DNA of 38,856 bases. Source: Myxococcales bacterium. Its GTDB lineage: Bacteria; Myxococcota_A; Polyangia; Palsa-1104; JAEUJZ01. Made by a program: the position numbers and the translations under genes. Below are positions 9,562 through 36,127 of the stretch, in pieces. Below the pieces are notes generated by a model. It saw only the letters and a program-made list of their open reading frames with translations. It searched no databases and was not told where the DNA came from. The stretch's first letter is position 1. Each line of letters starts with the position of its first letter. Where the stretch lies: NCBI GenBank assembly GCA_033578775.1, contig JAVQWY010000014.1, positions 64,001 through 102,856 on the forward strand. The letters run 5' to 3'.

Positions 9562-11259
9562 ATGAAAATCGTTTGCGAAAACTGCGGCACCAAATACTCG
9601 ATCGCGGACGAAAAGGTCAGCGGGAAAGTATTCAAGCTGCGGTGCAAAAAGTGTAGCCATGTCATCGTGGTGCGCGGAACCACCGAGAGCGAGGCGGCGC
9701 ATCAGGAGGCGCCAGCCCCAGCTGCACCCGGGCCAGCGTCGGAGCAGGCGAGCTCAGCCGGCCCGCCCCCCGATGCCGTCTGGCATTTGGTCATCGATCG
9801 GGAGCAGGTCGGCCCGATGACCGCGGCCGAAGTTCGCAACAAATTTGCCAGCGGAGTCATCGACGGCGAGACCTACATCTGGCGCGAGGGGTTTGAGGAC
9901 TGGGTGAAGCTGTCTTCCGTCGCGGAATTTCAGGATCTCGGCGGCGCGCAGCGCGGCAACGGCCAGGAGCAGACCACGCGCCGCTCGGACAGGGCGGACC
10001 TGTTCCGCGACGCTGGTCGGGACGAGGCACCAGCGCCCGGGGCGGACCTGTTCAACCCCCCCATGACCTCGTCGCCCACGGCCGCCACCATCGTGGCCAG
10101 CAGCCCAACATCGTCTGCCAGCGCCCCCTTGCGGTCCCAGCAGCCCCCAGGGGACCTTGTGAGCGCCAGCAGCGGTCCCTCTCCGGCGGTGGACATCCGG
10201 TCGCTCACCGGAGCGCGCAACGAGAACTCCGTTCTCTTCTCGCTCAACAACCTGCAGGCGCTGGCCAGTGGGTCGAGTTCCAGCTCTTCCGGTGGGGCCG
10301 GTGCGCGACCCGGGTATGCAGACTCCCGGACCGAGGGGTCTGGCCTGATTGACATCCGCGCCATGGCAGCGCAGACGCTGTCGGCGAGCAGCAAATTCGG
10401 CACAGCCGGCAGCAAACCGGATGACCTGCCGATGGTCAACGAGGCGCCCCTGTTTTCTCCGGTGGCGCCAGCGATGTTGATGCCAATTCCCGAGCCGCCT
10501 GGCATGCCAAAGTGGGTCTGGGCGGTGGTCGGGGTCGGCGGTGTGATGTTCCTGGCGATGACGGCGGTCATCATCTGGGTGGTGCGCTCATCGCCGCCCC
10601 CAGCGCCGGCGCCACAGCCGACGGTCGTTGTGGCCAGTGGCCCTGGAGGCATGGCACAGCCAGGTTCTGCGCCGACAGGGCAGCCAGCCTCCCCCGGTCC
10701 GACCGCGACCGAGTCTGGGCCAGGCAAGCCCACTGCCAAGGACGAGGGGGCAGTGGCAGAGGCCGAGCGCAAGCGGCGTGCGCGGGAGGCGCGGGACAAG
10801 GAGCGCGAGAAGCCTTCGGCCCCTAAGGAGAAGGAGCCCATCGCCTCCACCACCCCAGTGGCTCCCGCCGTGGAGCCCCCTGCTGAGCGCCGGCAGCCCA
10901 AGCCCAAGCCCAAAGACGATCTCGATGCTCTGCTCGACAGCGCCACGGGAGGGCCGAGCGCCGCTCGTCCCAAGGTCGAGTCGGTGCGGAAGGATGCACC
11001 CGAGCAGCTCAGCATGGACGAGATCAAGAGCGTGCTCAAGGGGGTCAACGCCTCGGTGCAGTCCTGCAGTCAGGGCAACCCCGGGACGTTCATTGTCAAG
11101 ATGACCATCGGCCGCAACGGCCGCGTCACCGACGCTTCCGTCCCGGGCAAGGCCGGTGATCCCACTGCAGATTGCGTGGTGCGCGCTGTCAAGGCCGCTC
11201 GTTTCCCTGAATTCAGTGGTGATCCGCAGTCCCTGAGCTACCCCTTCATCCTGCGATAG
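9562..11259 (+). CDS. MJ0042-type zinc-ribbon / GYF(DUF4339)-like membrane protein with Pro/Ser-rich linker and TonB-C-like C-terminal domain
   Basis: N-terminus MKIVCENCGTKYSIADEKV...KLRCKKCSHVIVV has the double CxxC. WHLVIDREQVGPMTAAEVRNKFASGVIDGETYIWREGFEDWVKLSSV is GYF-like. There is one TM (VWAVVGVGGVMFLAMTAVIIWVV) and a low-complexity P/A/S region. C-terminus FIVKMTIGRNGRVTDASV...CVVRAVKAARFPEF resembles a TonB C-terminal fold. Confidence 0.65.
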   Translation: MKIVCENCGTKYSIADEKVSGKVFKLRCKKCSHVIVVRGTTESEAAHQEAPAPAAPGPASEQASSAGPPPDAVWHLVIDREQVGPMTAAEVRNKFASGVIDGETYIWREGFEDWVKLSSVAEFQDLGGAQRGNGQEQTTRRSDRADLFRDAGRDEAPAPGADLFNPPMTSSPTAATIVASSPTSSASAPLRSQQPPGDLVSASSGPSPAVDIRSLTGARNENSVLFSLNNLQALASGSSSSSSGGAGARPGYADSRTEGSGLIDIRAMAAQTLSASSKFGTAGSKPDDLPMVNEAPLFSPVAPAMLMPIPEPPGMPKWVWAVVGVGGVMFLAMTAVIIWVVRSSPPPAPAPQPTVVVASGPGGMAQPGSAPTGQPASPGPTATESGPGKPTAKDEGAVAEAERKRRAREARDKEREKPSAPKEKEPIASTTPVAPAVEPPAERRQPKPKPKDDLDALLDSATGGPSAARPKVESVRKDAPEQLSMDEIKSVLKGVNASVQSCSQGNPGTFIVKMTIGRNGRVTDASVPGKAGDPTADCVVRAVKAARFPEFSGDPQSLSYPFILR

Positions 11260-12107
11260 CGGCGCCACGGCAGGAAGTGCAGAAACCCAGGCTCACACCG
11301 GATACCGACGAGTTGTCCCTTCATCCTACGATAGCGACGCCATCCCAACCCTGCCAGTGCGAGGAGCCCCATCAGGCCTGCCCCTGCCAGCAGGAGCAGA
11401 CGATGCGGCACCAGCGAAGGCGGCGCCCGCTCGAGAAAGCGCACTGTGATCGAGCGGTCCGACAGCGACGACGACGGCGGACCATAGAAACGAAACGTCG
11501 TGATGCGCTGCGGCTGCTCCGGTCGCGGTGCTCCCTGACAGGACTCGATCAGCTCTATACCCGGCCCCGGCTCGACGAGGATTTCGATCTCACCTGCCGG
11601 CGCAAGCCCGACGCGATCTTCATAGCGAAGCTCCTGCACCTGTCCAGATGCCACGCGCACCGAGGCAGATGTATCGACCGAAAGCGCGGCCGGGGCGACG
11701 GCATCGCCGGCAAGCCCGATCGTGGGCTCTGCAAAATGGAGCGCCACGGGCTGGCCGTTTGCCTCCAGCCGGAGTCCGGCCCTGGCCTCCCCTAGGAGCT
11801 GCCGCGCCAGGGCAGCCCCCTCGGCCTCACTGAGGCGTCCGTCGCCATCGCGATCGGCCCCCCGGCGCAGGTTGAACGCCGGGATGTCACCCACCATGAT
11901 GGTATAGGTGAGCCGCACCTGCCCACGTGGCATGAGCGCCAGCCTGCTGTATCGGTTCACCACGGAGAGGGTAAACTGCGGATGCCCTGGTGCCGGAGCC
12001 GCACCGCCAAGAATAACCAGGGCCATGGTCAGGGCAGCGCGCCATGAACAGGGCACCATGCCGCGCAGGTAACACGAGGACTGCCCCATGGCAAGCACCC
12101 GGTGCAT
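11238..12107 (-). CDS. secreted EF-hand (DxDxDG) protein with C-terminal TM anchor; probable start at 12057
   Basis: Signal peptide MVPCSWRAALTMALVILGGAAPAPG. EF-hand loop DRDGDGRLSEAE. C-terminal TM LLLLAGAGLMGLLALAGLGW followed by an RRYRRMKG tail that appears twice because of the DNA repeat. The 3' end overlaps the convergent zinc-ribbon gene by 22 bp. Confidence 0.45.
   Translation of the reverse strand: MHRVLAMGQSSCYLRGMVPCSWRAALTMALVILGGAAPAPGHPQFTLSVVNRYSRLALMPRGQVRLTYTIMVGDIPAFNLRRGADRDGDGRLSEAEGAALARQLLGEARAGLRLEANGQPVALHFAEPTIGLAGDAVAPAALSVDTSASVRVASGQVQELRYEDRVGLAPAGEIEILVEPGPGIELIESCQGAPRPEQPQRITTFRFYGPPSSSLSDRSITVRFLERAPPSLVPHRLLLLAGAGLMGLLALAGLGWRRYRRMKGQLVGIRCEPGFLHFLPWRRYRRMKG
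11241..11346. repeat. imperfect ~30-bp direct repeat (period 76 bp) spanning the stop codon of the zinc-ribbon gene
   Basis: ccccttcatcctgcgatagcggcgccacgg (11241-11270) versus tcccttcatcctacgatagcgacgccatcc (11317-11346). Confidence 0.7.
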
Positions 12108-12227
12108 CCGCGCGCTCGCCGCCCTGGCTTATCGCGGGAAGCGCCTCTGGTTTCCGCGGCTCGCTGCAGGATGCATAGCTGGGGAAGCCATTGCGACGGC
12201 TGCCGCCCCATCGTATGGTAGGGCGCT

Positions 12228-19477: not shown

Positions 19478-20605
19478 ATGCATCCACTATACTGCCAGAC
19501 GAAGACCGTGCGTCCTTATGCCCGTCGGAAAACCACGCCGCAGCTCGTTGTAGTCGCGGCGCTCCTGGCGCTGCTGGTACACGGGCTTGTGCTGCTCCTG
19601 CTGGTGGGCAGCGGGGCCCTGCAGACGCTGCCGCTTGGACGCACCGTGGTGGCCGAGCGCACCGAGGGGTTGCTGCGCTTGGACGAGCCACCCATCGAGA
19701 TCGAGTGGCTGGTGGATCAGCTGGACCGGCCCCAGCAGGAAACCCCTGAGGAGCAGCGCCGCCGACAGGAGGAGGAAACCACGCGCCCCGAGGGACAGGT
19801 GGTGGACATCGCCCGCCCGGCCCTGGAGCAGCGTCCCGACCAGGCGCGCTTTCTGGCCGAGTACGACTCGACGGTCGAGCGGGAGACGCGAGGACCCCCA
19901 GGGCGGTCCCAGGCCGGCGCCCTCCAGCCCGCTGCCCGGCCCACCCCTCCGCCCCGCCCAGCTCGTCCTGGCCGCGCTGGCCCCCCCGGGCCGCTGGCGC
20001 TCCGGTCGGCCTCGTCGCCCCCCGCGGCTGAGAGCAGCCAGGACCTGGCCCCCGATGGCACGGCCCGGTGGCAGCCCGGCGGCCCCCATCGGACGCCCTC
20101 CCAGCCCGGCGGTGGGCAACCCGCCGCCCCTGCCACGCCCAACTTGTTGGCCACCCCCGAGCTCCTGGAGCGGGTCCTGGGCCAGGGAGCCGGCTCGCCC
20201 GACTACCTGAAGGACATCGACGACGGCGAGTACACCGCCCTAAACGCCAAGCGGTGGAAGTTCGCCTCGTTTTTCAACCGGCTCAAGCAGGCCGTGGCGG
20301 ACGAGTGGCACCCGGACACCGTCTACCTGCGCCATGATCCGTCGGGCAACATCTACGGCATCAAAGATCGCATCACGGTGCTGCGCGTGCACCTGAAGCC
20401 CGACGGCCGCATCGCCGCCATCCAGATCCTGCGCCCTTCGGGCGTCGAGTTTCTCGACGATGAGGCCGTGGGTGCCTTCAAGCGTGCCCAGCCCTTCCCC
20501 AACCCCCCCCAGCAGCTGGTCGAGCCCGACGGGTTGATCCGGTTCAATTTTGCCTTCATCTTTGAGTTGTCGGGTCGGACCTCATTCAAGGTGTTTCGCT
20601 ACTGA
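19478..20605 (+). CDS. TonB-family energy transducer
   Basis: N-terminal TM (LVVVAALLALLVHGLVLLLLVG), Pro-rich spacer, and C-terminal TonB domain (YGIKDRITVLRVHLKPDGRIAAIQILRPSGVEFLDDEAVGAFKRAQPFPNPP). The ORF tool's upstream GTG at 19448 is also possible. Confidence 0.65.
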   Translation: MHPLYCQTKTVRPYARRKTTPQLVVVAALLALLVHGLVLLLLVGSGALQTLPLGRTVVAERTEGLLRLDEPPIEIEWLVDQLDRPQQETPEEQRRRQEEETTRPEGQVVDIARPALEQRPDQARFLAEYDSTVERETRGPPGRSQAGALQPAARPTPPPRPARPGRAGPPGPLALRSASSPPAAESSQDLAPDGTARWQPGGPHRTPSQPGGGQPAAPATPNLLATPELLERVLGQGAGSPDYLKDIDDGEYTALNAKRWKFASFFNRLKQAVADEWHPDTVYLRHDPSGNIYGIKDRITVLRVHLKPDGRIAAIQILRPSGVEFLDDEAVGAFKRAQPFPNPPQQLVEPDGLIRFNFAFIFELSGRTSFKVFRY

Positions 20606-20690
20606 GGCCTCCCAGCGCGGCAACCGCGTCCTCGTAGCGCTCGACTGCCAGGACCATTCAAGGTGTTTCGCTACTGAGGCCTCCCAGCGC
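20583..20690. repeat. perfect 36-bp direct repeat x2 separated by a 36-bp unique segment, covering the stops of two convergent genes
   Basis: cattcaaggtgtttcgctactgaggcctcccagcgc at 20583-20618 and at 20655-20690. Confidence 0.9.
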
Positions 20691-22312: not shown

Positions 22313-23893
22313 TCAGAAGCGGAACTGCACCGCCAGGCGCGCCTCGCGCTCCAACGTGGTGGGGGCGTGCAGGTCGGTGCCGAGGCGGCGCTCCATGAAG
22401 AAGGCGGTCACGGTGCCGATGCTGCGATAAAAGTACAGGTGCACCGCGGCGCGCCACTGCAGCTCGTCCAGCTGGCGCTGCATCTCTGAGCTTAGCATGG
22501 CCGGCGGGTGGTCGAACCCCGAGGCGACGAACTGGCCCACGTCCATGCCCAGCATGAGCCACTTGGACACCGCCAGCACACCGACCTGGATGTTGTAGGC
22601 CAGCCCCCAGGAGCCGAACTCAATCTCGCGCTTGCCATAGGTTTCGGCCTGGATGAGCAGGCGCCGGTAGCGCAGCACGGCGAACAGGTTGGCTGCGGGG
22701 AAGCGCTCCAGCGGCCGCTGCTCCCACTTGACGCCCAGGGCTAGGGCCACGGCCAGCGGCACCGGCGTGTACAGCAGCGGGCTGTCCCATCGGCTGAAGA
22801 AGCCAACCACGTTCCAGTGGATCTGAGCGGCCACCTGGTAGGCGAAGTTGCTGTTGTCCTCGGTCAGGAAGGTGCCGCCGACGTTGCCGGTAAAGCGCCC
22901 GGTGCCGGCCGAGGCCAGGGCACGGTACAGCAGGCGCCCGCCCCGGTCGATGGGCCCGCCAAACTCCACAGCCACGCTGTAGGGCTGCTGGAAGGCGTTG
23001 ACCAGATAGAAGGGCGGGTCGAGCAGAAGCTGCTTGTAGATCGAGATGGCCAAGATGGACGACAGGCCGCCGGTGCCGCTGCTGACGTTGGCGTAGTGGC
23101 CGCGCTTGCCCAGCGGCACCTGAAACATGGCAAAGGTCAGCCGCGGCGTGCGCTCGGCGCGCACGTTGAGCAGGAAGAACGAGTTGCGGATAAACGGGAT
23201 GGGGCCGAGCACGCGCAGCTGCAGGCGCGAAAAGCGGGCGTCGAAGGTGTTGTCCTGCGCCTGGTAGGCGACCTCGGTGCGTGCCACCACGGAGAAGGAG
23301 AAGTTGGGCTGCCCCTGGCAGACGGAGATGGAGGGGTCGAAGCGGCAGCCAAAGTCCTGGCAGTCGGTGCGGCCGTCGCCGTCGTTGTCGATGCCATCGG
23401 CGCACAGCTCGTCGCTGCGTTCGCCGTCCTTGTCGTTGCCGCGGCCGATGAGATCTTCTACGGACATGCCTGGGCCCAGCTCGGGCACCGGCTCCGACGC
23501 CATGGGCTGCCCCGTGCCCTGAGCGCCGCCGGTTGCCAGCGTGGCCTGGGTGCGCTGATAGGAGCCCTGGCACACAGAGATACCGGGCACCTGACAGTCC
23601 GGGTCATCGCAGTCCATCTGGCCGTCGCCATCGTTGTCGATCCAGTCGCTGCATAGGGAATTGGTGGACTCGGGCCGCCCGTCGGGACGGCAGTGGGGCG
23701 AGTCGGCGCAGTCGGCATCGCCGCAGTCATAGACAGTATCGCCATCGTTGTCGATGCCATCGTTGCACTCGGTCTCGCGCGCCGGCTCGGCCGCAGCGAC
23801 AGGTCTGGCCGGGCACAGCAGCACCGCCAGCAGCGCAGACAAGACGACCATGTCCCCTCGGGCCGTGGGTCGCATCGGTCGCATGGCTCGCAT
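22313..23893 (-). CDS. outer-membrane beta-barrel protein with N-terminal Cys-flanked DxDxDG repeats
   Basis: Signal peptide. Four copies of C.DGIDNDGDG..DC.D.DC. The C-terminal ~350 aa have beta-barrel texture and end in the Phe-terminal AVQFRF. Confidence 0.6.
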   Translation of the reverse strand: MRAMRPMRPTARGDMVVLSALLAVLLCPARPVAAAEPARETECNDGIDNDGDTVYDCGDADCADSPHCRPDGRPESTNSLCSDWIDNDGDGQMDCDDPDCQVPGISVCQGSYQRTQATLATGGAQGTGQPMASEPVPELGPGMSVEDLIGRGNDKDGERSDELCADGIDNDGDGRTDCQDFGCRFDPSISVCQGQPNFSFSVVARTEVAYQAQDNTFDARFSRLQLRVLGPIPFIRNSFFLLNVRAERTPRLTFAMFQVPLGKRGHYANVSSGTGGLSSILAISIYKQLLLDPPFYLVNAFQQPYSVAVEFGGPIDRGGRLLYRALASAGTGRFTGNVGGTFLTEDNSNFAYQVAAQIHWNVVGFFSRWDSPLLYTPVPLAVALALGVKWEQRPLERFPAANLFAVLRYRRLLIQAETYGKREIEFGSWGLAYNIQVGVLAVSKWLMLGMDVGQFVASGFDHPPAMLSSEMQRQLDELQWRAAVHLYFYRSIGTVTAFFMERRLGTDLHAPTTLEREARLAVQFRF

Positions 23894-23899
23894 CCTTGG

Positions 23900-25123
23900 C
23901 TACTCACATACGCGACGGCCTGGGCACACCGTCACCAGCGGGTTGTGGCTGCAATCCCAGTCGCGGCAATCTATGAACCCGTCCAGGTCGTTGTCGAGCC
24001 CGTCGGAGCAGCGGGCATTGGCGGCGGCCGCATCGGGGCCGAGGCTCTCTTGGCAGGCCTGGCGCACATCGATGGTGGCGGCCTGGCTGCAGGCCCGGTC
24101 CTCGCAGTCGATGTAGCCGTTGCCATCGTTGTCGAGGCCGTCGGTACAGCGAGCGAAGGTATTCTCCAGGCGGGCAGCGCAGTAGGCCATCAGGTCGGGG
24201 TCGCCTGAGCGCGAGCAGGAAAAGTCGGCGCAGTCGGTGTAGCCGTTGCGGTCGTTGTCCACCCCATCGCTGCAGCGCGCCAGCGTGTTTTCCAGCCGCT
24301 CGGCGCAGTAGGCACGCACGGCCGCGTCAGGGGAGGTGGCGCAGGCGCGGTCGGCGCAGTCGGTGTAGCCGTTGCGGTCGTTGTCCACCCCATCGCTGCA
24401 GCGCGCCAGCGTGTTTTCTGGCAACAGGTCAGCGCACAGGGCCTGGATGGCCGGGTCGGCCGAGCGGGCGCAGTCGAAGTCGCGGCAGTCGGTGTAGCCG
24501 TCGCCGTCGTTGTCGAGGCCGTCGGCGCAGCGCTCGGGGGTGTTTTCTGGCATGCGGCAGCGCTCCAGGCGCACGCAGTCGGGGTCGCGGCAGTCGATGT
24601 GGCCGTCGCCGTCGTTGTCCAGTCCGTCGCTGCAGCGGGCGTCGGTAAGTTCAGTGCAGACGGTGACAAAGGGGCTCTGGCGGCAGCCGAAGTCGCGGCA
24701 GTCGGTGTAGCCGTTGCGGTCGTTGTCCACCCCATCGCTGCAGCGCGCATCGGTATTTTCGATGATGCAGCAGGTCTCGGGGATGGCGCGGCAGCTGGCC
24801 TCGCCGCAGTCCCAGTTGCCATCGCCGTCGTTGTCCACCTGGTCGGTGCAGGTGGCGTAGGTGGCCTCGCGACGGGGGGGTTCAGGGATGGGGGGAACCA
24901 TCTCGCCGCAGAAGGTGGAGGTGAAGCGGCAGTCGGGGTCGCGGCAGTCGACCTGGCCATCGGCGTCGTTGTCGAGGCCGTCGCTGCAGTTTTGATCCTC
25001 GGTCTCGTAGCCCAGCACCGGATAGGGCGGGCGCTCAAAGCAGCCCAGCGCCAGCAGGGCGGCAGCAGGCAGTACGGCCACCAGGCGGCCGGGACGCGGC
25101 GAATCGTCAGATGGGCGGCGCAT
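23900..25123 (-). CDS. lipoprotein composed of ~9 tandem ~41-aa Cys-flanked DxDxDG (Ca-binding-loop-like) repeats
   Basis: Lipobox LLALGC. Repeats of ENT[LF]ARCSDGVDNDRNGYTDCAD..C....P.....YCA. The underlying DNA repeats are near-identical. Confidence 0.65.
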   Translation of the reverse strand: MRRPSDDSPRPGRLVAVLPAAALLALGCFERPPYPVLGYETEDQNCSDGLDNDADGQVDCRDPDCRFTSTFCGEMVPPIPEPPRREATYATCTDQVDNDGDGNWDCGEASCRAIPETCCIIENTDARCSDGVDNDRNGYTDCRDFGCRQSPFVTVCTELTDARCSDGLDNDGDGHIDCRDPDCVRLERCRMPENTPERCADGLDNDGDGYTDCRDFDCARSADPAIQALCADLLPENTLARCSDGVDNDRNGYTDCADRACATSPDAAVRAYCAERLENTLARCSDGVDNDRNGYTDCADFSCSRSGDPDLMAYCAARLENTFARCTDGLDNDGNGYIDCEDRACSQAATIDVRQACQESLGPDAAAANARCSDGLDNDLDGFIDCRDWDCSHNPLVTVCPGRRVCE

Positions 25124-25160
25124 GTACCCTCGCTTTCTTCCCCTTACCTCTCACTTGATC

Positions 25161-26442: not shown

Positions 26443-27912
26443 GTGTCTCATCTCAGGACGGCGATGAGCCATCCGTTCCGGCGGGCCAAGATCGTGTGCA
26501 CGCTCGGGCCGGCCAGCCGCTCGCCGGAGGTCATTGGCCATCTTATCGACGAGGGCATGGACGTTGCGCGGCTCAATTTCTCCCACGGCAGCCCGGATGA
26601 ACACCGCCGCATGGTGGCCCTGGTGCGGGAGCAGGCGCGGCTGCGCGGGCGCCCTGTGGCGGTGCTGCAGGACCTGCAGGGCCCCAAGATTCGCATCGGC
26701 AAGATGGCGCCGGGCACGGTGCTGGAGGCCGGTGCCGAGTTTGTGATCACGACGCAGGAGATCGTGGGCGATGCGACGCGCGCCTCGACCACCTACCGGG
26801 AGCTGCCACGTGACGTGCAGGTGGGCGACATCATGCTATTGGACGACGGGATGCTGCAACTCGAGGTGCTGGAGGTGGCTGGGGAGGAGGTCATCACCCG
26901 CGTGCTGGTGGGCGGGCCGCTGTCGGACAACAAGGGCATCAACCTGCCCGGCGTGCATGTGTCTGCGCCCTCGCTGTCGGACAAGGACCGGGCGGACCTG
27001 GTGCTGGGGCAGGAGCTGGGGGTGGACTTCGTGGCGCTCTCGTTTGTGCGCTCGCCGCAGGATGTGATCCAGGCCAAGGAGGCCATTCACGATGCGCGCC
27101 TGGCGCTGGGTGGGCGGCCGCGGCGGGCGCCCACCCCGGTCATCGCCAAGATCGAGAAACCCGAGGCGGTGGAACACCTGGCCGAGATCATTGAGGTGGC
27201 CGACGGCATCATGATTGCCCGCGGAGACCTGGGGGTGGAGCTGGGGCCAGAGAAGGTGCCGCTCATCCAGAAGTCGGCCATCGAGCTGACCAACCAGCAT
27301 GGCAAGCTGGTCATCACGGCGACGCAGATGCTGGAATCGATGACCGTCGCGCCACGGCCGACACGCGCCGAGGCGAGCGATGTGGCCAACGCGATTCTCG
27401 ACGGGACCGATGCGGTCATGCTGTCTGGCGAGACGGCCTCGGGGCGCTATCCGCTGCTGGCGGTGCGGACCATGGTGCGCATCGTGCGCGAGGTGGAGCA
27501 GAGCCCGCGCTTTCACCAGCTTATGGCGCGGCAGTCGTGGCCCAAGCTGGCTGTGACCAGCAACGCCGTGGCCCATGCGGCGGTGGTGGCGTCGCGACTG
27601 GTCAAGGCCCCGGTCATCGTCTCGGTGAGCGATTCTGGCGGGGTGGTGCGTTTGCTATCCGAGTACCGTCCCGAGGCGCTGCTGGTGGCGCTGTCGCGGC
27701 ACGAGGAGGTCTACCGTCAGCTGGCTGCCTACTGGGGCGTCGTGCCCATGATCGCACCCGAGGTGCAGACGGAGCAGGAGATGGTGGACTTTATCTTGCC
27801 CATGCTGCGGGAGCGGGGCTATGCCCGCAGCGGCCAGGCGGTGGTGATCACGATGGCGCTGCCCTATGGCAGCGGCCTGCCCACCAACACGATGCAGATC
27901 TTGCAGGTGTAG
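26443..27912 (+). CDS. pyk: pyruvate kinase
   Basis: RRAKIVCTLGPAS, NFSHGS and MIARGDLGVE. GTG start at 26443 with an AGGAGG RBS; the ATG at 26464 is an alternative. Confidence 0.95.
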   Translation: MSHLRTAMSHPFRRAKIVCTLGPASRSPEVIGHLIDEGMDVARLNFSHGSPDEHRRMVALVREQARLRGRPVAVLQDLQGPKIRIGKMAPGTVLEAGAEFVITTQEIVGDATRASTTYRELPRDVQVGDIMLLDDGMLQLEVLEVAGEEVITRVLVGGPLSDNKGINLPGVHVSAPSLSDKDRADLVLGQELGVDFVALSFVRSPQDVIQAKEAIHDARLALGGRPRRAPTPVIAKIEKPEAVEHLAEIIEVADGIMIARGDLGVELGPEKVPLIQKSAIELTNQHGKLVITATQMLESMTVAPRPTRAEASDVANAILDGTDAVMLSGETASGRYPLLAVRTMVRIVREVEQSPRFHQLMARQSWPKLAVTSNAVAHAAVVASRLVKAPVIVSVSDSGGVVRLLSEYRPEALLVALSRHEEVYRQLAAYWGVVPMIAPEVQTEQEMVDFILPMLRERGYARSGQAVVITMALPYGSGLPTNTMQILQV

Positions 27913-28013
27913 GCGCCGGTCCGCCTGGGGCAGCGCGATCGGTCTGCTGCTGTCCCGCCTGGGTCAGAGCGTTGCGGTTGGTGTGGCGCCGGTCCGCAGG
28001 GGGGAGCGCGACC
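27907..28013. repeat. diverged (~85% identical) ~33-bp direct repeat with 74-bp period starting on the pyk stop codon
   Basis: gtgtaggcgccggtccgcctggggcagcgcgatc (27907-27940) versus gtgtggcgccggtccgcaggggggagcgcgacc (27981-28013). Confidence 0.6.
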
Positions 28014-29770: not shown

Positions 29771-29933
29771 GGTGCTCCTTGTGCGTGCTGGCCCATCATA
29801 CTGGCCAGGGGCCGTAAGGTCCAGGCCACCAACCGGCGGGTGGCGCTTGGGCCGGGACGAGGGTCTGCGCCCTTTGCCCACATAGGGGCGAGCTGGACCC
29901 ATGGGGGGGCGGGGCGGCGGGAAGGGCTTGCGC

Positions 29934-30156
29934 ATCCAGGCCCCAGAAGAGTGCAGGGGCTGACGCAAAGGAGCGAATGCAGGCTTGAGTAGCGATAAAC
30001 CGGGTGAATCCAGGCCCCAGAAGAGTGCAGGGGCTGACGCAAGGGAACCTGGGCCTGGCGGAGGAGACTAGGGCTTGCGCAGGAACTTAGCTCCCGTGGC
30101 CTGTCTCCCGGAGTAACAGGGACCTGGGCCTGGCGGAGGAGACTAGGGCTTGCGCA
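29934..30156. repeat. two adjacent repeat-spacer-repeat structures (35-bp perfect repeats A and B, each x2, spacers 39-40 bp)
   Basis: Repeat A (atccaggccccagaagagtgcaggggctgacgcaa) lies at 29934-29968 and 30008-30042. Repeat B (acctgggcctggcggaggagactagggcttgcgca) lies at 30047-30081 and 30122-30156. B copy 2 contains the sterol methyltransferase stop codon. Confidence 0.9.
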
Positions 30157-31168
30157 CCAGAAAGTAGAACATCGGCGTGAAGATGCCGGTTCGCCCCCCC
30201 TCGACGAGGTAGCCCGCCCCGCGCTGCAGGAACGAGCTGACCGCGGTGGCGCCCTTGGGTGCCACGCCCACGGCCTCCAGGCTGCGGACCATCTGGTGGG
30301 TCAGCCATCGGCCCACGGGGCTGGAGCGGAACCCGCTGGGGGTGTACCAGGGGGCTGCCAGGGGCAGGTACCAGGGCGTCTCCGGGTCGGCGGTCAAGGC
30401 CCGGTCCTCGCTTTCCAGCACCTCGAAGCCGACCGCGCGCAGCGCTTCCAGCACCTCCGGCACCGTCGCCAGCTCGGGCAGCGCGTTGCCTTCCTCGATG
30501 CCCTGCCGGATCTCCCGATGGCGGGGGTTTTGCGAGTCGTACCGGTCGGTCACGCACCACTCGTAGGCGGCAAAGTGCGCGCCCGGCTTGAGCACGCGGA
30601 AAACCTCGCCGTAGATTTGCCGCTTGTCCGGCGCGTGGCAGGTGGCCTCGATGGCATAGGCGGCATCGAAGGTGCCATCTGGCACCGGAACGGACAGAAA
30701 GTCGCACTTGAGGAGCTCGCACAGGTGGCTCAGGCGGGCCGCCTCGTTGTGTTTGCGGGCCCGTGCGATCTGGTAGTCGTTGTTGTTCAGGCCGACGATG
30801 GTGGCGCCGCTAAAGCGGGCAATGGAGCGCATCGGCCCCCCCACCCCGCAGCCGAAATCGGCCACCCTCATGCCCGGCCGCAAGCCCAGGCGCAGCGCCA
30901 AAAAGTGCTCGTAGCGCGCGATGGAAGCAGCAAATGCCTCGCCGCGGAAGCGCGGCGCAAAGTGAAAGGACTGTCCCCAGCCGAACTCATAGAAATCCGT
31001 GACAAGATCGTAAAAGTTGTTGACCAGCGTCGCATAGGACTGTTTGCGACGTTCCGTGCTGCCGCCCCGGGAACGGTCATACTGGGCGGTGTAGTTGTCC
31101 ACGGTGGCCTGAACCTCGTCCCGGGCGAGGGATGTCTGACAGATGTCGGTGACCGATGGTGCGTCCAT
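30143..31168 (-). CDS. sterol 24-C-methyltransferase (ERG6/SMT1 family, SAM-dependent)
   Basis: Near-colinear match to ERG6 hallmark blocks: YEFGWGQSFHFAPRFRGEAFAASIARYEHFLA, FGCGVGGP, VGLNNNDYQIARA, YAIEATCHAP, VLKPGAHFAAYEWCVTDRYDSQNPRHREI, GGRTGIFTPMFYFLVRKP. Start at MDAPSV; the upstream ORF extension was rejected. Confidence 0.85.
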   Translation of the reverse strand: MDAPSVTDICQTSLARDEVQATVDNYTAQYDRSRGGSTERRKQSYATLVNNFYDLVTDFYEFGWGQSFHFAPRFRGEAFAASIARYEHFLALRLGLRPGMRVADFGCGVGGPMRSIARFSGATIVGLNNNDYQIARARKHNEAARLSHLCELLKCDFLSVPVPDGTFDAAYAIEATCHAPDKRQIYGEVFRVLKPGAHFAAYEWCVTDRYDSQNPRHREIRQGIEEGNALPELATVPEVLEALRAVGFEVLESEDRALTADPETPWYLPLAAPWYTPSGFRSSPVGRWLTHQMVRSLEAVGVAPKGATAVSSFLQRGAGYLVEGGRTGIFTPMFYFLVRKP

Positions 31169-31314
31169 GGCTGAGCCCTGTTGCTGTGTGCTGGTAGGAA
31201 ACCCGGAACCCGCGCGGGTGTCAATGTGCGATTCCGCACGGGCGGGAACCTGTTGACCCCAGCCCGCGCTGGAGGCAGCATGAGGCAATTTGTTTGATCC
31301 TGCCGGAGCATGCC

Positions 31315-32652
31315 ATGAGCGGAGAGCCTGAGCAGCCTGTTCCTGTCCCTGTCTATGACGTTTGCGTTGTCGGTGCCGGCCCGAGCGGTGCCACGTGTGC
31401 ATACTATCTGGCGCAGCGCGGCAAGCGGGTTTTGTTGCTGGAGAAAAAGACCTTTCCGCGCGACAAGCTGTGCGGCGATGCCGTCTGCACCAACGCCCAG
31501 ATCCACCTGGACCGCATGGGCGTGCTTCGGGAGCTAGAGGAGGAGGGCACCGGTCACTGGGCTGCAGTGGGGGGCCTGGTCAGCCCGCGGCGCATCGGGT
31601 TCATTGGCAACTCGGCCAAGCAAAATGGCCGCCCGCTGGTGATGGCCGTCAAGCGCATGATCCTCGACGAGAAGATTGCGCGCGCGGCGCAGCGGGCCGG
31701 GGCCCTTCTGGTGGAAAACACCACCGTGACCGGTGCCTCTCTCTCGCGGGCCGAAGGGGTGTGGACGGTCCAGGCAACCCGCAACGGGGCGGCCGTGTCC
31801 TACCGGGCGCGGGCGCTGGTGGCGGCAGATGGGGCGCTGTCGCGGCTCACCCAGGCCCTTGGCATCCCGACGCCGCCGCCAGACAGCGTGTGCAGCCGGG
31901 CCTACATCAAGGCCGGCACGCATCAGTTCGACATGGACGGCGTGGTCTTTTATGAGCTGGACATGGTGCCCGGCTACTGCGCCCTGTTCCGCGAGGCTGG
32001 CGGCGACGTCAACTACTGCGTCTATATCATCCCGGGCGGGCGCTGCTCCATTGACGATCTTTACGAGATGCACCACCGCATCCTCCGCGACAACCCGTAT
32101 GTGCGTCGGGCGGTCGGTCCCCACGCGGTCATCGACAAGATGAAGGGGGCACCGCTGCGCCTGGGTGGCATCCGCAAAAGCTACCACGACCACCTGCTCA
32201 TTGTCGGCGATGCGGCCGGACACATTGACCCGCTCACCGGCGAGGGCATCCATCATGCCATGGACGGTGGGTACCTGGCCGCCGAGGTGCTGTGCGAGGC
32301 CCTGGCAGTCGGCGACCTCAGCGAGCGGTTCCTGCGCCGCTATCAGGACCGCTGGATGCGCGCCTTTGGCCGCGATTTCTTCTGGTCCAAGAAGATGGCC
32401 CAGGTCTTTGCGAAGGCGCCGATTCTGGTCGATGCCAGCGCCGCGGTCATGCAGCGCAAGGGCGCGGACTCGCTGCTGGAATGGGGCCGTGTCATGACCG
32501 GCGTGGCCCCCAAGCGCTACTTTCTGCGGCCGGAGGTGGCGCTGCCCCTTCTTGTGGAGACGGGACGCCAGGTCGTCCGGCAAGCCTTGGGGAAGATCGT
32601 TCCAGATGTCAGGGTCTCTCTCGATGGAGTGGTTCGGCCCTGGATGCCCTAG
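31315..32652 (+). CDS. geranylgeranyl-reductase-family FAD-dependent oxidoreductase
   Basis: YDVCVVGAGPSGATCAYYLAQRGKRVLLLEKK is the Rossmann GxGxxG. LCGDAV. LIVGDAAGHIDPLTGEGIHHAM is GGR/ChlP-like. Alternative start at 31294. Confidence 0.8.
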   Translation: MSGEPEQPVPVPVYDVCVVGAGPSGATCAYYLAQRGKRVLLLEKKTFPRDKLCGDAVCTNAQIHLDRMGVLRELEEEGTGHWAAVGGLVSPRRIGFIGNSAKQNGRPLVMAVKRMILDEKIARAAQRAGALLVENTTVTGASLSRAEGVWTVQATRNGAAVSYRARALVAADGALSRLTQALGIPTPPPDSVCSRAYIKAGTHQFDMDGVVFYELDMVPGYCALFREAGGDVNYCVYIIPGGRCSIDDLYEMHHRILRDNPYVRRAVGPHAVIDKMKGAPLRLGGIRKSYHDHLLIVGDAAGHIDPLTGEGIHHAMDGGYLAAEVLCEALAVGDLSERFLRRYQDRWMRAFGRDFFWSKKMAQVFAKAPILVDASAAVMQRKGADSLLEWGRVMTGVAPKRYFLRPEVALPLLVETGRQVVRQALGKIVPDVRVSLDGVVRPWMP

Positions 32653-32662
32653 TGGTGCTCCC

Positions 32663-33061
32663 TTCGGGGCGGGGGCCCCGGTTCGCGGGGCAGGGGGGCA
32701 GCGGACTCAGGTGGGCCGGGAAAATATCCCAAGGCGCTTGAGAGGCGAGGGAGAGCACAAGGCTCGAGCCGGTGTCAATCAGGTTTGCCCCCGGGAAAAT
32801 ATCCCAAGGCGCTTGAGAGGCGAGGGCCCCGGTCCGCGGGGCAGGGGGGCAGCGGACCCGAGCCGGCTGGCGCCGCAGGGCTCTCCGGCTGGGGGCGGAG
32901 CAGGCGCGTCGGGAAGGACACGGGGCCCTGCGCCCGGGCACCCGCTGGGGCTGCGGCCGTGTCATCATCCTGCCATATCCTGCCATCGGCGGGCGGAGAT
33001 GCGCGCTACAGGAGATCCCTCGCCCCCCGCTGGGGCTGCGGCCGTGTCATCATCCTGCCAT
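32663..33061. repeat. complex nested direct-repeat region filling the intergenic space
   Basis: C is a 34-bp repeat with 1 mismatch at 32673-32706 and 32824-32857. D is a 36-bp perfect repeat at 32716-32751 and 32791-32826. E is a 36-bp perfect repeat at 32941-32976 and 33026-33061, overlapping the downstream ATG. Confidence 0.9.
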
Positions 33062-34271
33062 GCCATCCCTGCCCGCGCCTGCTGAGCAGGCGAAGCATTT
33101 CTGCCTGGAGGCGGGCGTGGTGTTTCTGAACCACGGCTCGTTTGGCGCCTGTCCCCGTCCTGTGCTGGCGGAGCAGGACCGGCTGCGCGTCCGGCTGGAG
33201 CAGGAGCCGGTGCGCTTTTTCCTCCAGGAGGCGCCGGTGCTGCTCGGGCGGGCCCGCGCGGCGCTGGCCGAGCTGGTGGGGGCCGACGAGCAGGATCTGG
33301 TCTTTGTGGCCAATGCCACCACGGCTGTGAACGCCGTGCTGCGCTCGCTGGATCTCCGCCCGGGAGATGAGCTGCTCGAGACGGACCACAGCTACAACGC
33401 CTGCCGCAACGTGCTGCGCTACCTGGCGGCGCGCACCGGCGCCCTCGTCCGCACCGTCGCGCTGCCCCTGCCCATCTCCGGCCCCCAGGAGGTGGTGGAG
33501 CGGGTGCTGCAGGAGGTCACGCCGCGCACGCGCCTGGCGCTGCTGGACCACGTGACCAGCCCCACAGCGCTGGTGCTGCCCGTGGCCGAGCTGGTACGCG
33601 CCCTCCAGGAGCGCGGGGTGGACACGCTGGTGGACGGCGCGCATGCCCCCGGGATGCTGCCCCTGGACCTGCGCGCCCTGGGCGCGGCCTACTATGCTGG
33701 CAACTGCCACAAGTGGCTGTGCACGCCCAAGGGTGCTGGGTTCCTGTACGTCCGTCGGGACCGCCAGGTGGGCCTGGTGCCGCCGGTCATCAGCCATGGC
33801 TACAACGCGCCGCCGTCTGAGCAGCCGCGGCTGCACGCCCTCTTTGACTGGACCGGCACGGTGGACCCGACGCCGGCGCTGTGCGTGCCCGCGGCGATTG
33901 CGTTTCTGTCCGGCCTGATGCCGGGCGGGCTGGCAGCGCTGCAAGAGCGCAACCGACAGCTGGCCTGTCAGGCCCGGCAGGTGCTGTGCGCAGCCCTGGG
34001 CCTGCCGCCGCCCTGCCCCCAGCAGATGCTGGGCAGCATGGCCGCGGTCCCCTTGCCCGACGAGGACAGGGGGACGCCGCGGTCGCCGCTCCAGCCCGAT
34101 CCGCTGCAGACGGAGCTGCGCGAGCGGTTTGGCATCCAGGTGCCGATCATGTCCTGGCCTGCATGGCCCCACCGCCTGCTGCGCATCTCTGCCCAGGCCT
34201 ACAACAGCCTGGCCCAGTACGAGTACCTGGCAGAGGCTCTGGGCACCCTGCTGGGGGCGTCCCGCCGGTAG
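33060..34271 (+). CDS. class V aminotransferase-fold PLP enzyme (isopenicillin-N-epimerase / cysteine-desulfurase-like)
   Basis: FLNHGSFGACP, ANATTAVNAV, HVTSPTALVLPV and GNCHKWLCTPKG (K is the PLP lysine). Confidence 0.8.
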   Translation: MPSLPAPAEQAKHFCLEAGVVFLNHGSFGACPRPVLAEQDRLRVRLEQEPVRFFLQEAPVLLGRARAALAELVGADEQDLVFVANATTAVNAVLRSLDLRPGDELLETDHSYNACRNVLRYLAARTGALVRTVALPLPISGPQEVVERVLQEVTPRTRLALLDHVTSPTALVLPVAELVRALQERGVDTLVDGAHAPGMLPLDLRALGAAYYAGNCHKWLCTPKGAGFLYVRRDRQVGLVPPVISHGYNAPPSEQPRLHALFDWTGTVDPTPALCVPAAIAFLSGLMPGGLAALQERNRQLACQARQVLCAALGLPPPCPQQMLGSMAAVPLPDEDRGTPRSPLQPDPLQTELRERFGIQVPIMSWPAWPHRLLRISAQAYNSLAQYEYLAEALGTLLGASRR

Positions 34272-34404: not shown

Positions 34405-34505
34405 AATGTTTGTCGAAAAAATAGCGATCATCTGGGCGCATATTTGGGGTTGACATTAAACGGACTCTATATAATACATAGACATAGCTTCATCGCTCGA
34501 GGAGG
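34405..34505 (+). promoter_or_regulatory. AT-rich island with sigma-70-like hexamers upstream of the ECF sigma gene
   Basis: TTGACA at 34450-34455 and TATAAT at 34470-34475, with a short 14-bp spacer. GGAGG RBS at 34501-34505. This is the only strongly AT-rich ~100 bp in this part of the window. Confidence 0.35.
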
Positions 34506-34514
34506 CGTTGGTCC

Positions 34515-35096: not shown

Positions 35097-36025
35097 CCCC
35101 CCAGCTGGGCCTGGTCTGCCTGTCGGCCGGACCCGAGGTCCGCTTCCGCACCACCACCCGTGCCTTCCTGCACCGCCACCGCCCCTGCGAGGCCCAGCAG
35201 CTGCTCCGGGCACTCTACCGCGACAACCTCGCCCGCCTGGAACGCGCCTTCGCCTTCTGCGCCTCGCTCGGCATCTCGCTCTACCGCATGCCCTCCAGCC
35301 TCTTTCCCTTCGCCGACGCCGAGGGCGCCCCCCTGCTCGAAGAGCTCGCCGAGCCGCTGGCCGCCCTGGGCCGCCAGGCCCGCCAGCAAGGCCTCCGTCT
35401 GCTGCTCCACCCCGACCAGTTCGTCGTCCTCAGCTCCGACTCGGCCGCCACGGTGCGCAACGCCCACCTCATGCTCGCCATGCAGGGACGCCTGATGGAC
35501 CTGCTCGACCAGCCCCGCTCCCCCTGGGCCGCCATCAACATCCACGGCGGCAAGGCCGGACGCCTGGCCGCCCTGGTCCGCGAGATCCGCTCCCTGCCCG
35601 ACGCCGTGCGCACCCGCCTCACCCTGGAAAACGACGAGCGCGCCTACGGCAGCGCAGAGATCCTAGAAGCCTGCCAGCAGGCCGGCGTGCCCATGGTCTT
35701 CGACGCCCACCACCACCTTGTTCACGACCGCCTGTCCTCCTACGACGACCCGAGCATCGCCCACTGGCTGGCTGCCGCCCGCCAAAGCTGGCCCGACCCC
35801 TCCCTGCAGGTGGTCCACATCTCCAACGGCCGCGACCACCTGCAGGACGCCCGCCACAGCGACTGGATCACCCACATGCCCACCGCCTACCGCCACGCCC
35901 CCTGGATCGAGGTGGAGGCCAAAGCCAAAGACGAGGCCATCCGCCGCCTCCGCCAACGCTGGCGCCCCCTGCGAGCCCGACCCTCCGGCCCCCGCGCGCC
36001 CGGTGCCCAGCAAGCAAACCGCTAG
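35093..36025 (+). CDS. uvsE: UV DNA damage endonuclease
   Basis: LGLVCLS, SLGISLYRMPSSLFPF, LLLHPDQFVVLSS, NIHGG, LTLENDER and HIS of the UVDE/UvsE family. ATGA overlap with the ECF sigma stop. Confidence 0.85.
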   Translation: MTPQLGLVCLSAGPEVRFRTTTRAFLHRHRPCEAQQLLRALYRDNLARLERAFAFCASLGISLYRMPSSLFPFADAEGAPLLEELAEPLAALGRQARQQGLRLLLHPDQFVVLSSDSAATVRNAHLMLAMQGRLMDLLDQPRSPWAAINIHGGKAGRLAALVREIRSLPDAVRTRLTLENDERAYGSAEILEACQQAGVPMVFDAHHHLVHDRLSSYDDPSIAHWLAAARQSWPDPSLQVVHISNGRDHLQDARHSDWITHMPTAYRHAPWIEVEAKAKDEAIRRLRQRWRPLRARPSGPRAPGAQQANR

Positions 36026-36127
36026 GGCCCCCCGCCAGCCGCCCCCCCGCACGCCGCTCCCCCCAAGATGCCCTGCGAGCCCGACCCTCCGGCCCCCGAC
36101 GCGCCCGGTGCCCAGCAAGCAAACCGC
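35967..36127. repeat. 56/57-bp direct repeat (1 indel) with 104-bp period; copy 1 is the last 18 codons of uvsE
   Basis: ccctgcgagcccgaccctccggcccccg(a)cgcgcccggtgcccagcaagcaaaccgc at 35967-36022 and 36071-36127. Confidence 0.85.

Follow-up and report, generated by a model that had tools for sequence, protein, structure and literature searches.

Repeat-insert-repeat units in a myxobacterial chromosome, some built around 23S rRNA fragments, as possible scars of off-target spacer integration

The 407-bp spacer between a gene for a geranylgeranyl-reductase-like (GGR-like) FAD oxidoreductase (31315-32652) on its 5′ side and the start codon (ATG, 33060) of a class V aminotransferase gene on its 3′ side carries three pairs of direct repeats, C, D and E, which together occupy approximately 76% of its length. 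These repeats are very probably target duplications around inserted DNA. The same repeat-insert-repeat (R-S-R) unit occurs at least five further times in the window, the whole 39-kb stretch (38,856 nt) analyzed here, each time with an unrelated repeat sequence and a period in the range 72-76. With moderate confidence we infer that a type III-like Cas1-Cas2 integrase, whether or not linked to a reverse transcriptase, made the insertions. The units have the geometry that CRISPR spacer integration would give at non-CRISPR sites, a process seldom documented in nature.

Pair C shows 36/38 identity with a period of 151, pair D 36/36 identity with a period of 75 and a 39-nt spacer, and pair E 36/36 identity with a period of 85 and a 49-nt spacer (Table 1). 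A repeat scan of the window recovered all three pairs at the positions given in a preliminary description of this region, and the coordinates bear out the nested C-D-spacer-D-C order proposed there. Two further details of that description also hold: E copy 2 ends in ...CCTGCCAT, thereby giving the AT of the aminotransferase ATG (33060-33062), and a spurious 177-aa ORF (32552-33085) contains ENIPRRLRGEG twice. The triplication of ATCCTGCCAT reported to follow E copy 1 is, by contrast, a duplication, with 2.0 tandem copies detected by TRF (32967-32986). Tandem-repeat analysis, which had been suggested as a check of the region, returned this 10-bp duplication and nothing at periods of 75, 85 or 151. 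Since the D repeat consists of 29 nt of the C insert and 7 nt of C copy 2, event D is later than event C. E copy 2 is the native copy, still attached to the aminotransferase gene.

Table 1. Positions of the repeats, inserts and R-S-R units in the window
Feature	Position	Strand	Length	Remarks
Event A (older)	11235..11342			Repeats 11235-11267 / 11310-11342, 28/33, period 75; convergent gene ends
Event B	20583..20690			Perfect 36-nt repeats 20583-20618 / 20655-20690, period 72; 36-nt insert
Event H (degraded candidate)	27912..28011			Repeats 27912-27938 / 27985-28011, 24/27, period 73
Event F	29934..30043			Repeats 29934-29969 / 30008-30043, 35/36, period 74
Insert F	29970-30007	sense	38 nt	23S rRNA fragment
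Event G	30045..30156			Repeats 30045-30081 / 30120-30156, 36/37, period 75
Insert G	30082-30119	antisense	38 nt	23S rRNA fragment
Repeat C copy 1	32669..32706		38 nt	Starts 17 nt past the GGR-like stop; very probable target duplication of event C
Insert C	32707..32744	+ (sense)	38 nt	23S rRNA fragment
Repeat D copy 1	32716..32751		36 nt	Final 29 nt of insert C joined to the initial 7 nt of C copy 2
Insert D	32752..32790		39 nt	No source found
Repeat D copy 2	32791..32826		36 nt	Perfect; holds second partial copy of the 23S piece (32791-32819)
Repeat C copy 2	32820..32857		38 nt	First 7 nt inside D copy 2
Repeat E copy 1	32941..32976		36 nt	
Tandem duplicate of the final 10 nt of E copy 1	32977..32986		10 bp	ATCCTGCCAT; detected by TRF
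Insert E	32987..33025		39 nt	No source found
Repeat E copy 2	33026..33061		36 nt	Final two bases form the AT of the aminotransferase start codon

The eight units share a common geometry. Their periods are 75, 72, 73, 74, 75, 76, 75 and 75, where pair C is taken as 76 (151 minus the nested 75) and pair E as 75 (85 minus the 10-bp duplication). The repeats are 36-38 nt long, exactly 36 at B, D and E, and are mutually unrelated, while the inserts are unique and measure 36-39 nt. The sequence between the copies is never duplicated, and the units are therefore R-S-R structures rather than tandem duplications. Identity between the copies ranges across the pairs from 100% down to approximately 85%; these differences indicate that the units differ in age and that the process recurred over time. 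TRF and repeat scans of the window revealed no array, with two copies per repeat.

Chance is excluded for the C, D and E repeats, as codon-shuffled windows (n = 5) yielded zero pairs of at least 27/34 identity at offsets of 55-130. Isolated pairs of R-S-R geometry numbered 0 in a control set of 80 loci from other bacteria (1.32 Mb, approximately 140 kb of it from Myxococcota), and the same 1.32-Mb set contained 0 ectopic rRNA fragments.

Plain local duplication through replication slippage or unequal recombination could be proposed for repeats that are local and present in two copies, particularly as a true 10-bp slippage duplication adjoins E copy 1. This explanation is very improbable, because the structure is R-S-R and not R-S-R-S, because three of the eight inserts, that of C included, match 23S rRNA and are foreign to the locus, and because slippage would not be expected to give one constant period, 72-76, at eight unrelated sites. 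The "local duplications" of the preliminary description thus stand insofar as the pairs are local and two-copy, and fail insofar as the material between the copies is never duplicated and, at C, is a piece of 23S rRNA. In all likelihood, duplication is here the symptom and not the event, with each pair representing a target-site duplication around an inserted piece.

The preliminary description also regarded the pairs as local rather than as members of a dispersed REP/MITE family, and this agrees with the presence of each repeat in only two copies within the window. Derivation from a dispersed family, whether REP, MITE or another mobile repeat, has a negligible probability for these units: the eight pairs are mutually unrelated, no terminal inverted repeats were found at the pairs, and when 241 million metagenome records were queried with a 36-nt probe that covers the bulk of the C insert and has 28 nt in repeat D, the number of exact matches was 0.

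The repeats are also visible in independent assemblies of the same species (99.6-99.97% identity). Logan assemblies use k = 31 and keep each 31-mer once, so that a contig entering a perfect repeat of more than 31 nt must end after 30 nt of it. Contig L089 (99.97% identity) begins at 33032, in E copy 2, exactly 30 nt inside; L088 terminates at 20612, within B copy 1; and L086 and L087, from two sequencing runs, share an end at 30127, within G copy 2. Contig ends located exactly 30 nt inside B, E and G indicate that these repeats exist in the raw reads. L088, an independent contig, also matches the window exactly over the diverged event A. Two other contig ends, that of L086 at 32627, 25 nt before the GGR-like stop, and that of L089 at 36047, in a C-run, are not accounted for by the repeats and possibly reflect strain variation or low coverage.

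These observations bear on whether the units could be an artefact of assembly. The source of the window is an NCBI Myxococcales/Myxococcota metagenome-assembled genome (MAG), and a second MAG of the species breaks in this very spacer, its contig boundary falling between the GGR-like and aminotransferase genes. An artefact is nonetheless extremely improbable, given that the k = 31 contigs stop 30 nt inside B, E and G (at G in two runs), that event A recurs unchanged in an independent contig, that several pairs carry 1-5 mismatches and so are not the product of a k-mer artefact, and that the flanking genes are intact.

A related genome provides an empty site. The source MAG is absent from the set of species-representative genomes, in which no match exceeded 64%. 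In L081, a relative with 87% amino-acid identity, the two genes are separated by 129 bp, a spacer that contains a single E-like copy abutting the ATG and none of the three inserts. Once the three insertions are subtracted, the spacer of the window measures 171 bp and aligns with that of L081 along its length, in a comparison that covers the C/D/E spacer only and involves a fairly distant relative.

When the concatenated inserts were compared with plasmid records by blastn, two of them matched the same records, on the same strand and 300-400 bp apart, in stretches that carry no annotated feature; one plasmid region matched is an rrn operon, and the matches fall within its 23S gene. An exact 29-mer of insert F led to one metagenome contig, L083, which bears 16S and 23S genes. 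Against the 23S gene of L083, insert F is identical at 31/31 positions (score 33 versus a shuffle maximum of 16), insert C is 90% identical over 41 nt (score 31 versus a shuffle maximum of 13) and insert G is 88% identical over 43 nt in the antisense direction. The alignment scores of the 23S inserts are 30-33, with a shuffle maximum of 16. By homology, these three inserts (C, F and G, 3/8) measure 38 nt each, two in sense and one in antisense orientation. Either rRNA or rDNA may have been the source of the 23S pieces. At the left junctions of events C (GAC, 32704-32706) and G (GCGC, 30077-30081), the 23S homology runs 3-4 nt into the left repeat, which may represent chance or microhomology between target and fragment.

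The remaining inserts were compared with several other candidate sources. Inserts A, B, D, E and H, together with the 48-nt spacer at 36023, scored no better than shuffles against two rrn operons. The inserts had no blastn match among phage records, and inserts B, D and E had 0 matches among viral contigs, leaving a phage origin unsupported. Inserts D and E had no match in the relative L081, and insert D had none among plasmid records. Within the window itself, only chance matches of at most 13 nt were found, so the inserts were not templated from nearby DNA. Rfam at gathering thresholds gave nothing in the window; permissive Rfam scans (29900-33100 and 32700-33030) also gave nothing, but they missed the known 38-nt 23S piece too, and Rfam is therefore uninformative on inserts D and E. 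Insert B has a third-position GC pattern like that of high-GC coding DNA. Sources are thereby identified for three of the eight inserts, all of them 23S.

The two constant lengths of the units constrain how they could have formed. A target duplication of fixed length implies two opposite-strand nicks at a fixed distance followed by gap repair, and an insert of fixed length and arbitrary sequence implies that the incoming DNA was measured. In the mechanism we propose, opposite-strand nicks 36-38 bp apart would open the target, and ruler-sized DNA of 36-39 nt would be joined into it. Gap filling would then copy the 36-38-bp target to both sides of the insert, generating an R-S-R unit with a period of 72-76. 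Three such events would account for the GGR-aminotransferase spacer. Event C would have put in a 23S piece, event D would then have struck across the junction of the C insert and its repeat, and event E would have hit the 36 bp directly before the ATG, a position at which copy 2 preserves for the aminotransferase both its start codon and the native 34 nt upstream. We know of no transposase family that makes 36-38-bp target duplications, and to our knowledge the CRISPR adaptation integrase Cas1-Cas2, which adds a spacer and in doing so duplicates the repeat, is the one machine with both rulers, for the duplication and for the insert, in this size range.

Published work on CRISPR adaptation describes processes of a related kind. 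Off-target integration by Cas1-Cas2 in vivo in E. coli, which can give rise to neo-CRISPR arrays, is credited to Nivala et al. 2018, and off-target integration in vitro is reported for P. furiosus. Spacers acquired through S. thermophilus type III-A adaptation measure 32-42 bp with a peak at 36, are PAM- and orientation-independent, and derive in at least 30% of cases from highly expressed non-coding genes such as those for rRNA and tRNA (PMC8860593). In the III-A system of S. epidermidis, rRNA and tRNA hotspots arise with Cas1-Cas2 alone, the Csm effector counter-selects rRNA/tRNA spacers in real arrays, and the 23S gene is sampled less than the 16S and 5S genes (PMC8860600). RT-Cas1 enzymes are able to take spacers from RNA. 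A type III-like source bias is seen in the window as well, where three of the eight inserts are 23S, in both orientations. Counter-selection by Csm that is confined to real arrays would explain the survival of rRNA pieces at ectopic sites.

The units resemble the neo-CRISPR loci of E. coli in having a spacer-sized insert between direct duplications of repeat-length ordinary genomic DNA, at sites of unrelated sequence, so that each forms a one-spacer "array" outside the CRISPR locus (Nivala, Shipman & Church 2018). That work reportedly relied on an over-expressed E. coli type I-E integrase, whereas the events described here are natural and dense, at approximately 1 per 5 kb. They also differ in their 36-38 bp duplication, in their three 23S inserts and in an integrase that we infer. 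The repeat of the E. coli type I-E system is 28 bp. Described off-target sites resemble the repeat or the leader, while no such motif is visible by eye at the targets here. The evidence for natural off-target integration, from two other species, has been called circumstantial.

Type III adaptation in S. thermophilus and S. epidermidis (III-A) offers a second likeness, in insert size, rRNA source and the lack of orientation preference; RT-Cas1 systems such as M. mediterranea III-B are a further point of comparison. Spacers in these systems enter a bona fide leader-adjacent array, in contrast to the pieces found here at ectopic sites, and the identified pieces are all 23S, unlike in S. epidermidis, where 23S is sampled less than 16S and 5S. 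A canonical CRISPR array has the same repeat and spacer lengths and the same alternation, but each unit in the window has one spacer and a different repeat, no leader or cas genes nearby, and no growth. Transposons and casposons share the direct duplication of a target by staggered cleavage and gap repair. Their duplications are 2-15 bp long, and what they insert is a kilobase-sized element bearing terminal repeats and a transposase. The units differ from them in a 36-38 bp duplication and a 36-39 nt insert without defined ends.

A different, non-CRISPR machine could have made real insertions of this kind, either an unknown integrase or a repair process linked to a reverse transcriptase (RT) that captures short cDNAs of abundant RNAs such as rRNA at breaks staggered by 36-38 bp. 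This possibility is rather unlikely, yet it is a serious rival in view of caveats concerning the enzyme, the target motif, the event density, the 23S bias and a further repeat unit at 35967-36127. No cas, transposase or reverse transcriptase genes were found within the 39-kb window. No motif common to the eight targets was seen by eye at their boundaries, and the density of approximately 1 event per 5 kb is far above that reported for off-target integration and is unprecedented for Cas1-Cas2. The abundance of rRNA among cellular RNAs, of which it is the foremost, would suit the capture of cDNA, with 3/8 inserts being of this origin, as would the possible 3-4 nt microhomology at the left junctions of C and G. 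On the other hand, no known transposase, retroelement or repair pathway gives a fixed duplication of approximately 36-38 bp together with a fixed insert of approximately 38 nt, and both rulers together are the hallmark of Cas1-Cas2. The inserts also occur in both orientations without tails, and insert B resembles coding DNA rather than an abundant RNA.

The unit at 35967-36127 consists of a 57-nt direct repeat (two perfect 28-nt blocks with a 1-nt indel between them) around a 48-nt C-rich spacer, with a period of 104-105. Its first copy is the 3′ end of the UvdE gene, and the spacer opens with the stop codon of that gene, TAG. In its geometry this unit lies outside the 36 + 38 ruler.

All eight R-S-R units are located at gene boundaries, and the duplication has preserved the flanking genes. 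Event G copy 2 contains the stop codon of a sterol methyltransferase gene, and event H lies directly 3′ of the pyruvate kinase stop. In event B, copy 1 has the stop of a TonB-like gene (+) and copy 2 that of a PLP decarboxylase gene (-). Reconstruction of the state before this insertion places the two genes in convergent orientation with a 20-nt overlap (20586-20605), stop to stop; the insertion parted them and left both proteins unchanged, each gene now having its own copy and stop. A search for the empty site of event B through decarboxylase homologues gave a best homologue of 73% identity, whose 3′ end is not syntenic. In event A, a minus-strand ORF (11241-12128) extends across copy 2 and the insert as far as a stop in copy 1, the matching stop triplet of copy 2 being mutated (CTA to TTG on the + strand). 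This insertion may have lengthened the C-terminus of the encoded protein.

The distribution of the events along the window is uneven. The targets of F and G were adjacent in the ancestral sequence, with 1 nt between them, and events C, D and E lie within 400 bp. Five of the eight events thus fall in two spacers separated by 2.5 kb, a clustering suggestive of local hotspots or local tolerance. The neo-repeat left by event C was not used again in event D, an indication that the units do not undergo array-like growth.

The position of the units at the starts and ends of genes, and the presence of events G, B and E in multiple samples from this species, could be taken to mean that they are selected functional elements, such as mini CRISPR-like arrays or rRNA-mimic or anti-rRNA pieces of untranslated regions that affect the flanking genes. 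This is improbable. The units are not conserved in the relative L081, and the C/D/E spacer has no exceptional RNA fold (z = 0.49 against shuffles), no promoter-like sites and no Rfam match. The inserts are mixed in orientation and source, and their placement at gene ends can be read as the residue of purifying selection against insertions within genes. The units are probably inert by-products. Their persistence would be explained by the target duplication, which leaves flanking gene ends intact, and by the neo-repeats, which would not be expected to yield crRNA and hence would provoke no autoimmunity from rRNA-matching inserts. Inserts that match rRNA would be neutral at ectopic sites.

The window otherwise represents ordinary chromosome, with genes for PurA, pyruvate kinase, DciA, ExbB/ExbD, sigma factors and UvdE. 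A homologue of sterol 24-C-methyltransferase (with a Sterol_MT_C domain; 30146-31402, - strand) is divergent to the GGR-like FAD oxidoreductase gene (31315-32652, + strand), and the two may form a bacterial pair for sterol side-chain modification. On the - strand, a coding repeat of 105-138 nt, with many GAC/TGC (Asp/Cys) codons, occurs in 11-13 copies at 23345-25006; it spans two large ORFs (22313-23899 and 23900-25150), and we take it to resemble calcium-binding thrombospondin-type-3-like repeats; these ORFs had no Pfam match at E ≤ 1e-5. Upstream of an ECF sigma factor gene, an AT-rich stretch (34420-34514; 2040-2156 in L081), TTGACATT...TATATAATA..., is strongly conserved with L081, and the remainder of that spacer is not. 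This stretch is likely the promoter and leader of the sigma factor gene.

The literature searched contained no description of rRNA pieces with 36-bp flanking duplications, nor of dense natural off-target integration. For annotators, unrelated 36-bp direct repeats located 75 bp apart, some of them around rRNA pieces, provide a recognizable signature. This signature accounts for repeat-rich spacers, spurious ORFs and contig breaks in MAGs.

We propose tentatively, at somewhat below even confidence, that the lineage has, or recently had, a spacer integrase, perhaps an RT-Cas1, that hardly discriminates between targets and has scarred gene ends and intergenic DNA genome-wide, at approximately 1 event per 5 kb, with pieces of rRNA and other sequences of about 38 nt. 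Such peppering would amount to on the order of a thousand scars in a genome of myxobacterial size. If off-target spacer integration is the correct reading, CRISPR integrases could be a significant source of mutation in host chromosomes. The scars would show what integrases capture before selection, with rRNA matches that are purged from type III arrays surviving here, and would constitute an unselected fossil record of captured sequences. They would also show how the repeat-spacer-repeat seeds of new arrays originate and would supply raw material for new CRISPR arrays. Target duplication would allow insertions to hit start codons, stop codons and overlapping gene ends harmlessly, as in events E, G and B, and spacer integration would be a force that remodels gene termini and untranslated regions.
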